Assembly: GCA_000146465.1 (NCBI GenBank)
Contig: CP001946.1
Length of the DNA stretch: 64,000 bases
Direction: 5' to 3' (one strand)
How positions within the stretch are numbered: position 1 is the first letter of the stretch; every line of letters begins with the position of its first letter. Shown here one piece after another: positions 2,481 through 62,460 of this stretch. Under the pieces are notes generated by a model. It saw only the letters and a program-made list of their open reading frames with translations, made no database searches and had not been told where the DNA came from. Position numbers and translations under genes: made by a program.

Positions 2481-2520
2481 TCCTCAAATCAAAAAAATTC
2501 CCCCCAATCTCTCAAATACT

Positions 2521-3811
2521 GATCCTGCTGCTGGTTCTCCAACAGCAGCCATGTTACGACTTATATCTTATCTAACACGAAGGACTCAGACCTTCCAATC
2601 TTCGTCCACTGCGTCATCTTAGATAGCGACGGGCGGTGTGTACAAAGGACAGGGACCCATTCAAAACAACTTGTTCAATCGTTATTACTAGGAATTCCAC
2701 GTTCAGAAGCCCATTACACAGCTTCATCCCTCACAGCAGGCTCCCTCGCCATCTATCGTAGTGCGCGTGCCGCCCGCTTCATCTCAGGGCATAACGGACC
2801 TGTTCTGTTCCATTCCTCCCTTGCCCCAAAGAGCACTGTCAAAGGGTCTCACATCTTACGCAACTTAATCCAAAGCTCACGCCATCCATTTCAAACGGCC
2901 ATGCACCACCGCCGCGCGCATCCCGTCCTCGTTCTCCTGCCCGCTTCAGAACCGGTAAGTTGCCCCGCGTTGAGTCAAATTAAGCCGCACACTCCACTCC
3001 TTGTGGTGTCCTTCCGTCAATCTCTTCAAGTTTCACTCTTGCGAGCATACTATCCCCAGAACCCACATACTCAAGATTTCTCATGCACAACACTATATAG
3101 TCCCGTCCAGTCGGCATCGTTTACTGCTAGAACTAAAACGGTATCTAATCGATTTCGATCCTCTAGCCTTCGTCCTTCATCGTCACATAAGTCCAAGAGC
3201 ACAGCCTTCGCTTCTGTCCGTCCAGTCAGGGTCTTCGTATTTCACCCCTCGCCCAACTATCCGGTGCCCCTCGTCCTCTGCCAAACCTCTTACATCCACA
3301 TCAGGACATAATCCCCCAAACAAAGACATACAAAAGACTACGGACTTTTTAACTGCAGCATTCACCATAGACACTATTGGAGCAGGTATTACCGCGGCTG
3401 CTGGCACCCGACTTGCCCTCCAATCAATCTCGACTCCTTTACACTCGAAAAAAACTCACTTCTCATAACCGCCTCCCCAAAGGATTAGGCAAGTTTCGCG
3501 CCTGCTGCCATCCTTGGACGTAGTAGCCATCTCTCAGGCTCCCTCTCCGGAATCAAACCCCGATCCCCCGTCTCCCGTCTCCGCCTAGTTAGGCCATTAC
3601 CCTAACTACCAGCTGATAGGCCTACAACTTACTTGGCTCGTGTCAAAAACACTCCTAGCCCCCTACCTGCAGTTTCCCGCAGTTACAGCTCTCCCGCCAA
3701 CCAAATCATCGTACTATCACTGAGCCGTCCGTCAATCCCCCACAAGGTTCATCAACATGCATGGCTTAGTCCCAGAGAATAGCATCCACGTCAGGCAGAA
3801 TCAACCTGGTG
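2521..3811 (-). rRNA. Small-subunit rRNA, about 1.29 kb, the reduced 16S-like microsporidian form.
   Basis: The reverse complement of 3790-3811 is CACCAGGTTGATTCTGCCTGAC, the microsporidian SSU 5' end. The 530-loop motif GGTGCCAGCAGCCGCGGTAATAC lies near 3385-3410. The 3' region motif GTACACACCGCCCGTCGCTATCT lies near 2620-2660. A GGATCA-type 3' end lies near 2521. ORFs 38..3468 in the track fall inside the rDNA and are not genes. Confidence 0.9.
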
Positions 3812-6323: not shown

Positions 6324-8756
6324 CTAGTTACTTTCGTATTTGCATCTTATTGCTAAAATTTCTTTACTTTGGGTCCCAACATAAATGAGTTTCCCATCCC
6401 ATATTACTGAGTTTATTGCTCCTACAATCTTCATCTTTCCAACGCAGAACATAGAACTATCTAAAAAGTCCCAAAATCGAAGCATTCCATCCTTGGATCC
6501 GGTAACAAACGAATCCTCCATCGATGCTCCACACTTGATCCATGAGTCATGTGCATATGGAACAGTTTTAACTATGGTTCCATCTTTCCATCTTCTTAAC
6601 GAGCAGTCTCTTCCGAAGCTTATGAGTTCGTTCTTATAGCACAATAATCCCTGAACTGAGTCCAGATGTGGAGGGGAAAGGGTTATAAAGCCATCATTGT
6701 AGCGCTTAACAGTATGGTCTCTAGAGCCTGTATATGTGTCCTGCCCCATTCTTTCTATGCAGAACACTGTTCCGGAATGTGCTTTTTCGGCAAATGCTAA
6801 CTTACAATTCCTTTGGTCCAGTATAGAAAGAGTCCCATCTTCATGCCCTGTAAATATATAGTTATCTCTAGAGAGTAACGCCGAAACTTCGCTTCTGAAA
6901 CCATATACTGGACGTGTACCAGATCTGTGGTCAAACCTCTTCAATATTCCTCGAGTTGTGTATAAGAGTGTTTCTAATCCTTCCATACATCTAACGCCCT
7001 CCTCTGTAAACAGAGTTTCTGTCCTATCACTCCATTTTCTAATTTTATTATCTATAGATCCAAATACAAGGCAGGAATCGAAAAGGGCCAATGTAGTAGG
7101 GAGGTATCCTGATAGTTTCTCTACGATAGTTGTATTCATGGTTATCTTCTCTTTTCTCGGTGTGAAAAGTGCATATTTTTTGGTATTTCTTTCTAAATCA
7201 AAGGAAACAATTCTTTTATGGGTCTTACTGGAGGCTGCATGTGTCATCTGATCTTCTATAATCTCGCATGTGTCAGATATCTCTAGAGAGTCTACATATT
7301 TTCTTATTGTGTCGATTTTGTTGTATTCCCTTTGGCTCTGATTTTCTATTTGGCGTTTGTATTCATTATCTCCTGGATTATTTGTCGATGCTTCCGGTTC
7401 GTCTAACTCTGCAACTATCTTTAATTTCTCTTCGTCCCTTTTCTTTCTGGAACTATTTTCTGGAGAGTTTATTCTATTCTCCGATGCTTTTCTTTTAAAA
7501 GATTCTAGGCCTTTGTATTCATCTGTGATTAAACCTCGATTTTCCGGTTCTCTCGGCATTCTTTGAATCGTATCCTTAAGTTTTTGATTTTCGTTTATCA
7601 GATTTTGAACAAAAGGATGCTTTAGAATTTCTTGGACGATATCCTCCCTTCTGTCGTTTTTTTCAAAATCTAGAGTTTCTAACTTCGATTTGAGACTCCG
7701 ATTCTCCAAAATTAATTCCTCTATATTAACTTTGGACTCCCGACGGAACTTCTCCTTAAGTATTTGGTTTTCAGCCTTAAGCTTCTGTATTTCTTTTTTC
7801 AATAAAAGAGTTGTAAACTTTGAACTATCCACTTGTATATTCATTTTCGTCGTGGTTTCTATGGAGGCTGCTCTGCTTGCATACTTTAAGGTGTTGTGTG
7901 TTTCGCCAATGTCGGCATGAGAAGAAGAAATGCAAGCCACCATCAATACATATCCATTAAGGCAGCTTTGAAGAATTCGGGTAAGTTTTGAGTCTCGAAA
8001 GGGAATGTGGGAAGATTTCTTAAATAAAGCAGAAATGACATTTCCAAGAGCCAGAAGCCCTGAGTTGATGGAGATTCCCTCCTTTGCACGGTCTCCGGCA
8101 CACATGGTTCTTTTAAGCCTTTCGCTTCCTGCCAAGTCAACAAAGGAAAACTTCGATGTTATGAATGATCCATTTACTTCCTTTCTATGGAAAAGGGTAA
8201 ATATAGCATGGCTTCTAGACGATTTTGAATTCATATTGGTTGATTTTGTTGTTCTTTCCAAGGATCCCTTCTTCAGGGCCTCAATTCCATCTTCGTATGA
8301 TTTCAGAGTCACTTCACTTGCTCCAGCAATGGTGACTTCTCCATTTACTTCTCTCAGGCTCAAAGGCATTTTGTGCTTACTGAACAGGTCAATCACTTCT
8401 TCATTGTAAACCTCGATGAAAATGCAGTTTACCTCCTGGGTTATCTTGAATATGTGCTTAAGAGACTGGGGAACAATCCCCGTCATATCTTCGTGTGTCA
8501 TTCCCATTGTGTAAGTTTTTCCACTGCCTGTTTGTCCATAAGCCATCACTGTGCAATTATACCCTTCAAGAAAAGACTCTGTGAGATGCCTGACACTTCT
8601 GTCGTAAATTTGTACCTGCGATGTAGTAAGGTGCACTTTACTAAAAGTGTAAGTTTTTGTTCCTACGGTCAATGCTGAAGGTGTACTTTCTATTACATTG
8701 TCTAATCTAGGATTTATTCGCACCTCGACTTGAATTGTGTTCTTCTTATCTTCCAT
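6324..8756 (-). CDS. Kinesin-like motor protein with a C-terminal WD40 beta-propeller (KIF21/kinesin-4-like architecture).
   Basis: The N-terminus carries the kinesin P-loop GQTGSGKTYTM, switch I SSRSHAIF and switch II VDLAGSE. A coiled-coil middle follows. The C-terminal ~250 aa carry WD-like repeats (GHEDGTLSILD, GSRDHTVKRYN, GSKDGMLRFWD). Confidence 0.85.
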   Translation of the reverse strand: MEDKKNTIQVEVRINPRLDNVIESTPSALTVGTKTYTFSKVHLTTSQVQIYDRSVRHLTESFLEGYNCTVMAYGQTGSGKTYTMGMTHEDMTGIVPQSLKHIFKITQEVNCIFIEVYNEEVIDLFSKHKMPLSLREVNGEVTIAGASEVTLKSYEDGIEALKKGSLERTTKSTNMNSKSSRSHAIFTLFHRKEVNGSFITSKFSFVDLAGSERLKRTMCAGDRAKEGISINSGLLALGNVISALFKKSSHIPFRDSKLTRILQSCLNGYVLMVACISSSHADIGETHNTLKYASRAASIETTTKMNIQVDSSKFTTLLLKKEIQKLKAENQILKEKFRRESKVNIEELILENRSLKSKLETLDFEKNDRREDIVQEILKHPFVQNLINENQKLKDTIQRMPREPENRGLITDEYKGLESFKRKASENRINSPENSSRKKRDEEKLKIVAELDEPEASTNNPGDNEYKRQIENQSQREYNKIDTIRKYVDSLEISDTCEIIEDQMTHAASSKTHKRIVSFDLERNTKKYALFTPRKEKITMNTTIVEKLSGYLPTTLALFDSCLVFGSIDNKIRKWSDRTETLFTEEGVRCMEGLETLLYTTRGILKRFDHRSGTRPVYGFRSEVSALLSRDNYIFTGHEDGTLSILDQRNCKLAFAEKAHSGTVFCIERMGQDTYTGSRDHTVKRYNDGFITLSPPHLDSVQGLLCYKNELISFGRDCSLRRWKDGTIVKTVPYAHDSWIKCGASMEDSFVTGSKDGMLRFWDFLDSSMFCVGKMKIVGAINSVIWDGKLIYVGTQSKEILAIRCKYESN

Positions 8757-14601: not shown

Positions 14602-15267
14602 TCATAAAGATTCCTTCTTATTATTATAGCTAATCATTGCTTCCAACCATTTAAAAGCTCGTGCAAGAGGTCCGGTTATGCTATTAGCACTTCCGCTTGT
14701 TATAGTAACGTAGAAAATCTTTACAACCTGTCCCTTTTCCGGGTCCTCCTGATCTTCGATTCCAGTCTCCTGAGCAAGCCAGGATTTCCATTGGTAATCA
14801 GCCTCGGCAGTTTCCGGCGTATGTCCCTCAAGATCGATCTTATTCATAAGTACAACTATTGGTGCCTTTTTTTCCAGAGCTCTTACAGTCTCATATGCTT
14901 CTTTTACTTCTAAAAATCTTTCTACATCATGAACATCAACTATAAACACAATTCCGTGGCAATCATAAAAGTAATCTCTCCATGCAAGTCTTGCTGCTGT
15001 ATGCCCTCCAAGATCAATAACCTGTGCCTTCAAATTTCCTATCTCTATATAGGAAGTGCTGGGATGATGAGTAGGCATATAGACATCTGTTGAATCACTT
15101 TTCAATTTGTTCACCAAGGTGGTCTTCCCTGCATTGTCTATACCAAGGAAGAGAATCGAAGAAGGCTTTCCAAAGAGAGATTTGATGAAATTTTGAAATA
15201 CCTTTTCGTAGAACTCAGTAAGCTTGAATTTCACAAGCTCAAGATACCCCTGTATGTTACTAAACAT
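14602..15267 (-). CDS. SAR1: Sar1 small GTPase (COPII). The start was taken at the internal Met; the track ORF extends to 15369.
   Basis: LFLGIDNAGKTTL (P-loop) and DLGGH..AR (the Sar1-specific His in the G3 box) are present, as is NKID. An amphipathic N-terminal MFSNIQGYLELVKF is typical of Sar1. A CCCC run lies ~20 nt upstream of this ATG. Confidence 0.85.
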   Translation of the reverse strand: MFSNIQGYLELVKFKLTEFYEKVFQNFIKSLFGKPSSILFLGIDNAGKTTLVNKLKSDSTDVYMPTHHPSTSYIEIGNLKAQVIDLGGHTAARLAWRDYFYDCHGIVFIVDVHDVERFLEVKEAYETVRALEKKAPIVVLMNKIDLEGHTPETAEADYQWKSWLAQETGIEDQEDPEKGQVVKIFYVTITSGSANSITGPLARAFKWLEAMISYNNKKESL

Positions 15268-15403
15268 TGTTGTTTTGTTTTTTTCCGGGGTTTGTTTTTT
15301 CGAATTTATATTCTTCAGTCTTAAAACCGCACAGGCCCTCCCATCTATAGAGACCCTATTCCTCTGCATTCCTGGAAATACAAATCCCCCATACTTTGTT
15401 CTT

Positions 15404-33610: not shown

Positions 33611-33679
33611 GTCTTTCCCTTGATTCTCCTGTAGGTTTAGTGTCGGTAGTAAAAGCAAAAATTTGCATCACCCCAAGAA

Positions 33680-34435
33680 ATGGTAAGTGAACAATCATGG
33701 AATTGATCTAACTTTTAGGCAATACAACCACCAGGATCATATCCACAAGGGAACAAGAAGGGAAAAGCCAAAAAGAAGGCTGGGCAAAATACATTTGAAA
33801 GGAAGGAGTGGTATAACCTCCGATCTCCATCGATTTTTCCCTGCAATATCAGTGGAAAGACCTTTGTAGCAAAGTCCACGAGCAAGAATACCAATTTGAA
33901 GCTTATAGGAAGGAGGTATGACGTTAACCATGCAGACCTTACGAAAAACAATGATTTCACACATCGGAAATTCATATTCAAGGTAGGGGATGTCAAGGGG
34001 GCCGATTGCATTGGATTCTTTGATGGAATGGAGTTAACATCTGATAAGCACAAAGCAATGATCAAGAAATGGCATACTCTTATCGAAGCTCAAAAGGACA
34101 TTGTGGCAAAGGACCGGAGCGTTTTCAGAGTGTTTGTCATGGCAGTTACGAGGAGGCCGCAAGGGTATACCAAGAAGACATGTTATGTCAAGCATTCCGA
34201 AGAGAAAAAGATCAGAAAGATTATGTTTGATGTCATTGAGCAGGAGCTTGGAGGACGTAGTGTTGATGAAATCATGAACAAGCTTTCTAACGAGACAGTT
34301 GGAAAGAGGATTGAAGAGTTGGGGAGCGAGATATTCCCCTTGCAAAACTGCTGCGTTAGAAAGGTCAAGACAATCAAGAGCTATCAAGGAGTAAGTATTG
34401 GCCAAGAGGAGGAAGTTGGAGCCATAGCTAATTAA
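33680..34435 (+). CDS. 40S ribosomal protein eS1 (S3Ae), a two-exon gene. The start-codon exon is 33680..33682, the intron is 33683..33718, and exon 2 is 33719..34435.
   Basis: The exon 2 translation AIQPPGSYPQGNKKGKAKKKAGQNTFERKEWYNLRSPSIFPCNISGKTFVAKSTSKNTNLKLIGRRYDVNHADL… matches the eS1 family (FTRKEWYD.KAP..F, GKTLV.KT, ADL). The reading frame is open exactly from the AG of the intron. The track ORF 33896..34435 is the downstream part of this frame, called with a TTG start. Confidence 0.8.
33683..33718 (+). other. Spliceosomal intron of 36 nt, placed immediately after the ATG of eS1.
   Basis: The 5' splice site is GTAAGT directly after the ATG. A branch-point-like CTAAC lies 6 nt upstream of the 3' AG. 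The sequence is …gatctaacttttag|GCA. Removing it restores the eS1 N-terminus. Confidence 0.7.
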
Positions 34436-34513
34436 AGCATTCTTTTTTCCTTTTCGGCCGATATTTCAGTGTGTCTAAATAGAAAGAAGCCTTGAAAATC
34501 ACCACCGTGTTGT

Positions 34514-35302
34514 TTAATCCTCGTCTATATCCCCAAGCCCCAGATCTTTCAGCTTCTGCCTCACCTTCTCATAGGTGTCGTCGGGGTTTTTGACGGTTAT
34601 TCCATGGACATCCTTATGGATGTAGATTTCGTAGTCGTTTCCTCCCTCTTGGGTCATATCCCCGAAGAAATACACATTCTCAATTCCCTCCTTCTTTATG
34701 TGCCTCAGACAGTATGTCTTGTCCCAGCCCTTTGGGAAGCAGTCAATTGATATCTGTCCTCCAATCGAGAACACCATACAGCTACCTTTGAATTTTTCCC
34801 TCATGGCTGCAACCATCTTTTCTCGGAATTTCTCCTTCTTATCAATCTCAAAAAACTCCTTGCGCTCCTCCCTACTGCAATTCCTTCCTATCGGGCTTAT
34901 GTTAATCATGGAGTTCCTATATTCAATGAAGTTACCCCTTTTTATGGGAATTTCCAGCTTGCTAAGATACTCTAGGACAAAGTTGACAAACTCTTTGTAA
35001 AATTTCTCCCCAAGGACATCGATTATCTTTTCCTGAGACTCCAGAGCCCCTTTCTTGTAGAAGCTGAGACCGTTTTCTGGAAATCCATAATCAAATAGCT
35101 CAAGAAGATCGTCTCCAATTTGCTCCTTTTGCTTTTCAAGGTCTGATCCCCCCACAAACCCCAGGCAAACCTTCTTCTTAAGTTTCCTTACCATCTTCTT
35201 CATTTTCTCAGTCATCTGAGCCCTTGATTCCGAAAGCGTTCCGTCCACATCAAACAAAAAGATTGTCTTCTCGTCTTTTGCCATGGTCCATTTCGTTTGC
35301 AT
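34514..35302 (-). CDS. Phosphomannomutase (Sec53/PMM).
   Basis: The N-terminus has LFDVDGTLS (the HAD motif I typical of PMM), and the overall PMM pattern is conserved. The start may be the second Met (MAKDEK…, 35284). Confidence 0.85.
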   Translation of the reverse strand: MQTKWTMAKDEKTIFLFDVDGTLSESRAQMTEKMKKMVRKLKKKVCLGFVGGSDLEKQKEQIGDDLLELFDYGFPENGLSFYKKGALESQEKIIDVLGEKFYKEFVNFVLEYLSKLEIPIKRGNFIEYRNSMINISPIGRNCSREERKEFFEIDKKEKFREKMVAAMREKFKGSCMVFSIGGQISIDCFPKGWDKTYCLRHIKKEGIENVYFFGDMTQEGGNDYEIYIHKDVHGITVKNPDDTYEKVRQKLKDLGLGDIDED

Positions 35303-61859: not shown

Positions 61860-61896
61860 TGGAAAGCTGTTTATGAAAATTTTGCTATCCCTGAGA

Positions 61897-62460
61897 ATGG
61901 GAGCTGTTACAAAGAAGAGTAAGGAAAAGAAGCATGCAGAGCTTGAAAAGGTTGGAAAGTATGCAGAGGAATACCCCCTTGTTGCAGTGATTGAAAACCC
62001 AAGCATATCTAACGTCATACTCAAAAAGATTAGAGAGGACTTCAGTGGTGTATCCAGGATTCTGTTTGTGAGAAAGAAGATGGCAAGAGCGGTGTACAAC
62101 ATGCCTTCTATGCCAAAAGACTCCTTCTTCTTGATGTTTGGGGACACAGAAGCCATCGAAAGAGCCAAGACATACCAGTACGAGGATTTCCTCGAGAAAG
62201 GCGATGTTTGCCCTGCTCGGGTTGTCATAGAAAAGCAAGTGATAAGAAACAAAGAGATGATTGAGATTCTTCCTGTATCCATGAAGGACGAGCAAATGCA
62301 GTTGAAAGAGGACTATGTTGCTTGCGAGGCTGGAGAGGAGGTTGATGAGGTGAAGGCAAAGATCTTAAGGTTCTTTGGGAAGAGATTGAAAAAAAAGAAC
62401 CTGGTTGTATTCGATGTAACCCCATCCTCCAGTCTTCTAAAAAAAACCACAAACGATTAA
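61897..62460 (+). CDS. Mrt4 / ribosomal P0-like ribosome assembly factor.
   Basis: The N-terminus MGAVTKKSKEKK… followed by YPLVAVIENPSISNVILKKIREDFSG…ILFVRKKMARAV fits the uL10/Mrt4 family pattern. The start was moved to the Met preceded by CCC; the track ORF starts at 61846. Confidence 0.65.
   Translation: MGAVTKKSKEKKHAELEKVGKYAEEYPLVAVIENPSISNVILKKIREDFSGVSRILFVRKKMARAVYNMPSMPKDSFFLMFGDTEAIERAKTYQYEDFLEKGDVCPARVVIEKQVIRNKEMIEILPVSMKDEQMQLKEDYVACEAGEEVDEVKAKILRFFGKRLKKKNLVVFDVTPSSSLLKKTTND

Follow-up and report, generated by a model that had tools for sequence, protein, structure and literature searches.

The gene coding for the ribosomal protein eS1 (S3A; S1 in yeast) occupies positions 33680-34435 (+) of the 64-kb stretch of Encephalitozoon intestinalis DNA analysed here, referred to as the window, and it raises the question of how a complete protein can be obtained from a reading frame that is closed right after its initiator codon. 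Starting from the ATG at 33680-33682, unspliced translation gives MVSEQSWN and ends at the TGA at 33704-33706; a second in-frame stop, TAG, lies at 33716-33718, so that the eS1 frame is open only from 33719. The initial annotation had explained this interruption by a 36-nt spliceosomal intron placed immediately after the ATG. The coordinates that it assigned to the ATG, GTAAGT, CTAAC and AG, as well as the length, turned out to be exact to the base, and the frame is indeed closed upstream of the AG at 33717-33718.

The sequence from 33640 to 33730 reads AAAAATTTGCATCACCCCAAGAA, then ATG, GTAAGTGAACAATCATGGAATTGATCTAACTTTTAG and GCAATACAACCA. The initiator ATG (33680-33682, +), at which the NCBI gene model also starts, represents the whole coding part of exon 1; it is followed by the putative U2-type spliceosomal intron (33683-33718, +; 36 nt), which is in phase 0, after codon 1, and whose limits were given by a script, by the span of the gene model and by a gap in the alignment of orthologous genes. 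A script run on the sequence located the 5' splice site GTAAGT (33683-33688, +) and a branch-point box CTAAC (33708-33712, +), which is the single CTAAC of the region. The box is followed by TTTT and by the 3' splice site AG (33717-33718, +), the sole AG between the box and the exon; the next AG (33733-33734), as read from the sequence, would give a frameshift if used. On the basis of the yeast UACUAAC rule, we infer that the putative branch nucleotide is the A at 33711. The distance of 6 nt between CTAAC and AG indicated in the initial annotation is valid if measured from this A to the A at 33717, and not if measured from the end of the motif, which is 4 nt before the AG. Exon 2 (33719-34435, +) comprises codons 2-239 of eS1 and the TAA stop (34433-34435).

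The length of 36 nt is a multiple of three, yet the in-frame stops block read-through; this length, like the 34-36 nt of the orthologous introns described below, falls inside the 22-76 nt range of Encephalitozoon introns (PMC3629993). The 64-kb window contains a single match to the composite pattern ATGGTAAGT-N10-40-CTAAC-N2-8-AG, versus 0.01 matches expected by chance, an estimate obtained from 100 dinucleotide-preserving shuffles, the pattern being matched in 1/100. When both strands of the window are scanned, ATGGTAAGT itself is unique to the eS1 start.

Joining 33682 to 33719, with the removal of 33683-33718, yields a full-length eS1 of 239 aa, whose expected N-terminal peptide is (M)AIQPPGSYPQGNK. 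The spliced product matches the Pfam family Ribosomal_S3Ae (PF01015) with a value of 4.6e-57 and 193.1 bits, versus a cut-off of 29.3, the match involving residues 19-221 and profile positions 2-189 of 191. It also matches 75 eS1 sequences of the PDB. The alignment of the spliced translation with eS1 orthologs, which had been proposed as a check, gave the expected outcome: the eS1 chain of the E. cuniculi ribosome (7qep_S1) is aligned end to end (1-239, 1.1e-129), that of the Vairimorpha necatrix ribosome (6rm3_SB0) is aligned over residues 1-222, both deposited chains (7QEP and 6RM3) start with MAIQPPGSY, and M1, A2, I3 and Q4 are invariant in an alignment of 10 microsporidian eS1 proteins.

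The same protein is already present in public databases. The entry ADM11471.1 ("40S ribosomal protein S3A", E. intestinalis ATCC 50506), which we infer to derive from the 2010 genome, shares 100% identity with the spliced product over all 239 residues, and three E. intestinalis accessions (KAL73…) are likewise 100% identical over their full length. The eS1 locus corresponds to CP075162.1:47694-48449 (assembly GCA_024399295.1, E. intestinalis ATCC 50506), where the NCBI gene model has a span of 756 nt and a product of 239 aa; this leaves 36 nt as non-coding, revealing that the intron is already included in the public annotation. An identical protein model is found on five independent E. intestinalis contigs/assemblies. 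The statement that the true start of the gene is missed by open reading frame calling applies, therefore, to the bacterial-style ORF finder, whose list does contain the two calls reported (TTG 33896..34435, 179 aa, and GTG 33687..33869, 60 aa), and does not apply to the NCBI model. A Logan contig (L013, ERR13302946), which presumably represents a different isolate of E. intestinalis, follows the genome collinearly, with the intron included and the neighbouring genes present, and tells nothing about splicing for this reason; the two sequences exhibit 3 mismatches in 1707 nt, all outside eS1 and clustered in the phosphomannomutase gene (window 34620-34634, i.e., L013 1249-1263).

The comparison was extended to syntenic loci, in which a flavodoxin-type reductase gene and the eS1 gene, in the same orientation, face the oppositely oriented genes for phosphomannomutase (PMM) and glycerol-3-phosphate dehydrogenase (G3PDH). 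Four syntenic orthologs, all with the same flanking genes, harbor an intron of 34-36 nt at the identical site. In E. romaleae (L002) it is 35 nt long (gtaagtggaaattaagaagtagatctaatttttag) and in Ordospora colligata (L004) 34 nt long (gtaagtgaggactttaagagaagctaatttatag), both with the 5' splice site GTAAGT. An Ordospora-like JGI contig (L003, 3300050452, positions 1389-1425) carries a 34-nt intron that also begins with GTAAGT and has two changes with respect to O. colligata, the branch box variant being gttaat where O. colligata has gctaat (TTAAT vs. CTAAT). The fourth, on an Encephalitozoon-like Logan contig (L007, SRR21633403, positions 1279-1317), is 36 nt long (gtaggtggagcgcttgcgaacacatctaatttctag), has GTAGGT rather than GTAAGT as 5' splice site and possesses a G+C-rich interior. 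The branch boxes of these orthologs are CTAAT (TTAAT in L003), and the spacing CTAAY-TTNT-AG is identical to that of E. intestinalis. On the whole, the introns show little conservation in their interior; what is kept comprises the 5' splice site, the CTAAY box with its spacing to the AG, and both exon flanks.

In three other microsporidian lineages the segment is absent, and precisely so, since the coding sequence directly reads ATG|GCN ATH; in the DNA alignment, two intronless orthologs share a single 36-column gap coinciding with 33683-33718. This precise absence in intronless relatives fixes the splice junction. The first lineage is represented by two Logan contigs (L005, SRR21023573, positions 1501-2220, and L006, SRR21023580, positions 349-1068; ...ccccaaaaaATGGCGATACAACCA; ccccaaaaaATGGCGATACAA), whose eS1 protein shares 72% identity with that of E. 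intestinalis and whose four-gene synteny is the same. As far as these sequences go, the absence in L005/L006 points to a putative loss of the intron inside the Encephalitozoon/Ordospora group or close to it. The second lineage, in our judgement Nosema-like, includes four contigs (L014-L017; ENA ERZ12419334 and Logan SRR29437442, SRR25474851 and SRR25474866; ...aaaaccccttaaaaATGGCAATTCAACCA) with 19-21% G+C and an eS1 that is 55% identical to the query, the closest named protein in the alignment being V. necatrix eS1. The third is a divergent microsporidian (L018, JGI Ga0308170_10000781, positions 1201-1920), whose protein starts with MAIRPTGQY; it is the sole useful sequence from a metagenome scan for microsporidian eS1 orthologs, in which nearly all matches were distant and non-microsporidian.

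The sequence upstream of the ATG carries a signal of the type found at ribosomal-protein (RP) promoters and transcription starts (33657-33674, +), consisting of AAAAATTT (33657-33664) and then CCCC (33671-33674). The CCCC box ends 5 nt 5' of the eS1 ATG, and the leader preceding the ATG carries CCCCAAGAAATG. Signals resembling AAATTT and CCC typify microsporidian RP genes, whose 5' UTRs are shorter than 7 nt (PMC2803860). The upstream signal is also kept in E. romaleae, L007, Ordospora and L003, and an AAATTT/CCC signal precedes the intronless eS1 genes of L014-L017 and L018. A second RP-type signal (AAAATTTTGCTATCCCTGAGAATG) exists in the window at 61876-61899 (+), directly 5' of a 187-aa ORF (61897-62460) that has a weak Ribosomal_L10 match and belongs to a gene without intron.

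The gene at 33680-34435 (+) would thus almost certainly be an eS1 gene with one 36-nt U2-type spliceosomal intron right after the ATG, a reading for which the sequence data allow high confidence. Boundaries, CTAAY box, length, restoration of the ORF, and positional conservation or precise absence in relatives are all those of a U2-type (GT-AG) microsporidian short RP-gene intron, and the spliceosomal interpretation of the initial annotation is supported by the full-length spliced eS1 and by orthologs that either keep the segment or lose it precisely. Given the in-frame stops and the 36-column gap in the intronless genes, RNA splicing is the only reasonable route to the conserved N-terminus.

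The first of the other explanations is that no splicing occurs and that translation starts at the TTG at 33896 or at the first in-frame ATG (34028, residue 105), giving an N-terminally truncated eS1. Such a start is what the bacterial-style ORF finder picks at 33896, and truncated eS1 models do exist in the databases, namely, a 179-aa model from a TTG start on a Logan-assembled contig (P0003) and the 189-aa AGE95466.1 (P0008; NCBI nr, E. cuniculi strain); moreover, most short E. cuniculi introns are spliced at less than 50% (PMC3629993). However, a downstream start would cost 60-104 residues and, with them, the beginning of the S3Ae domain, which is matched from residue 19. The codons that would be left out also evolve as coding sequence: between E. 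intestinalis and E. romaleae, codons 2-60 differ at 10, 3 and 24 first, second and third positions, respectively, and this third-position bias represents a coding signature upstream of the TTG at 33896. In addition, MAIQ is invariant in 10 species and contiguous with the ATG in the intronless genes, and the RP-type promoter signal adjoins the ATG at 33680 rather than the TTG at 33896. Translation from a downstream codon is, for these reasons, very improbable.

An even smaller probability is attributed to the idea that the 36 nt arose as an artefact of assembly or sequencing, or that the gene has become a pseudogene through an insertion; nothing specific speaks for it, apart from its being a generic possibility for any in-frame interruption. 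The occurrence of the same protein model on the five E. intestinalis contigs/assemblies speaks against an artefact, as do the independent L013, which agrees with the window through the whole intron (all 3 mismatches in 1707 nt being at 34620-34634), and the four other species with a same-site intron and intact splice signals. A pseudogene is at odds with eS1 being an essential single-copy ribosomal protein with an intact downstream frame, and the independent assemblies and the orthologs effectively refute both versions. Least probable of all is the skipping of the 36 nt during translation (ribosome hopping or bypassing) of an RNA that is not spliced, since, even though the segment directly follows the ATG and has a length that is a multiple of three, exactly the positions of a canonical GT...CTAAC...AG are kept while the rest diverges, orthologous segments have lengths (34 and 35 nt) that three does not divide, and introns of this class are spliced in the sister species as seen by RNA-seq (PMC3629993).

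Under the spliceosomal reading, a plausible series of events can be outlined. Transcription would start a few nt 3' of the CCCC box. The GUAAGU of the transcript would first pair with ACUUACC in the U1 snRNA of Encephalitozoon and afterwards with U6, and CUAAC would pair with U2, bulging the branch A (33711); the AG located 6-7 nt 3' of the branch A would act as acceptor, and the reduced microsporidian spliceosome would excise the intron, joining AUG to GCA AUA CAA. Unspliced mRNA would yield only the 8-residue MVSEQSWN and would be non-productive. It is known that the U1 snRNA of Encephalitozoon carries the 5'-splice-site-binding motif ACUUACC and that E. intestinalis, like its relatives, possesses the U1, U2, U4, U5 and U6 snRNAs (PMC5499648). 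In E. cuniculi, no more than about 30-37 proteins make up the spliceosome (PMC3629993). The claim that this lineage retains a functional spliceosome is in line with the full snRNA set and the active splicing that two studies document for Encephalitozoon (PMC5499648, PMC3629993).

Data on splicing efficiency exist for the sister species. According to PMC3629993, 30 of 37 E. cuniculi introns are spliced at less than 50%, retention leads to a stop or to a frameshift in all of them, and RNA-seq confirmed all the introns annotated earlier; the main text of that article does not name S3A among the 37 quantified introns, the gene names being given in a figure. By analogy with this inefficient splicing, a sizeable pool of unspliced eS1 mRNA would be expected, part of it probably non-productive. 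A caution comes from one E. cuniculi RP-gene intron that was predicted at genome annotation and was found unspliced by RACE; it is 27 nt long, and its retention would not shift the frame (PMC2803860). This counter-example means that a prediction alone is no proof; unlike that intron, the one of eS1 has two in-frame stops.

It might also be asked whether the intron has been kept in Encephalitozoon and Ordospora as a throttle on eS1 output through its inefficient removal. If so, the amount of eS1 would be determined by the rate of splicing, unspliced mRNA being dead-ended by the two stops, and the arrangement would resemble the intron-dependent autoregulation of yeast RP genes. The conservation of the splice boxes and the inefficient splicing reported in E. 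cuniculi, the only two observations that bear on this idea, may point in this direction, and the idea is to be considered rather unlikely.

Strict and loose motif scans of both strands of the 64-kb window disclosed no convincing second intron. The strict scan (GTAAGT...CTAAY...AG) retrieved three extra matches (8649-8710, 34391-34437 and one within the SSU rRNA), none of which opens a long frame. The look-alike at 34391-34437 (+; GTAAGT...CTAAT...AG, 47 nt) extends over the last 14 eS1 codons and the stop, and it was considered a chance match because none of the orthologs (E. romaleae, L007, Ordospora and L005) has this GTAAGT and all have a coding C-terminus. Among the other NCBI gene models in window positions 6045-64000, every span equals 3 x (aa+1), and none has an intron; scans and gene spans agree, therefore, with the earlier statement that the 64 kb contain no other convincing intron. 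According to our own arithmetic, one intron per 64 kb would roughly be the expected density, if about 37 introns in the about 2.9 Mb of E. cuniculi are considered (figures from PMC3629993 and PMC6349667).

As for other features of the window, neither snRNAs nor tRNAs were found in it, and the Rfam matches consist of rRNAs only: a complete unit at its start, on the - strand, formed by a eukaryotic LSU rRNA (27-2407) and a microsporidian SSU rRNA (2517-3811). The rDNA is subtelomeric at both ends of all Encephalitozoon chromosomes, and the unit at the window start fits this arrangement (PMC10158259). A gene for an Arf/SRP-receptor-beta-like GTPase is located at 14602-15369 (-); its longest ATG ORF has 255 aa and the NCBI model starts later (221 aa); such uncertainty about start codons has been discussed for microsporidian annotation.

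Short, 5'-biased introns have reportedly been described in Encephalitozoon ribosomal-protein genes by Biderre 1998, Katinka 2001, Lee 2010 and Grisdale 2013. Compared with the typical ones (about 25 nt), the eS1 intron is longer (36 nt) and otherwise does not differ. It resembles the RP-gene introns of S. cerevisiae in the GUAAGU-like 5' splice site, in the CUAAC box, in the 5'-proximal position and in the enrichment in RP genes, and it differs from them in the distance between branch point and AG, which is just 6-7 nt; yeast RPS1A/B are not known to have an intron at this site.

Microsporidian short GT-AG introns of RP genes usually begin right after the ATG (PMC6349667). The long microsporidian introns (poly-A-binding-like ORF and S23; Whelan et al. 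2018, PMC6349667) are likewise spliceosomal and retained in intron-poor microsporidia; however, they are about threefold longer, with 76 nt in E. cuniculi, possess a conserved internal region and are efficiently spliced, whereas the poorly conserved interior of the eS1 intron places it in the short class. The reduced intron complement of E. intestinalis is the same as that of E. cuniculi (Corradi et al. 2010, PMC4355639). The closest precedent is the S3A gene of E. cuniculi, listed with the upstream sequence AAAAATTTGCGCCACCCCAGGAA, starred as "mispredicted start" and labelled "(intron)" by Peyretaillade et al. 2009 (Additional file 3, PMC2803860). In the same source, S3A of Anncaliia algerae is also labelled "(intron)", and that of N. 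ceranae, A. locustae and E. bieneusi is not (PMC2803860). The corrected E. cuniculi protein (CAD26541.2 / NP_597364.2) has 239 aa, as in E. intestinalis, and starts with MAIQPPGSYPQGNKKGKAKKK; the two orthologous genes have AAAAATTTGCGCCACCCCAGGAA and AAAAATTTGCATCACCCCAAGAA upstream, respectively. This is a different species, and the likeness is judged from upstream signal, flag and protein.

The eS1 intron is of a well-described kind, already annotated and ordinary: that of the E. cuniculi ortholog was reported in 2009, and introns adjacent to the ATG of RP genes have been known in the genus since 1998-2001. The same-site intron loss in related lineages was observed here, and nothing is new with respect to the publications of 1998-2013. 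Ignoring the intron causes a gene caller to cut 60-104 residues off an essential ribosomal protein, as some database entries still do. The intron has little importance beyond correct annotation, for which it provides a clean textbook case of the minimal microsporidian intron.
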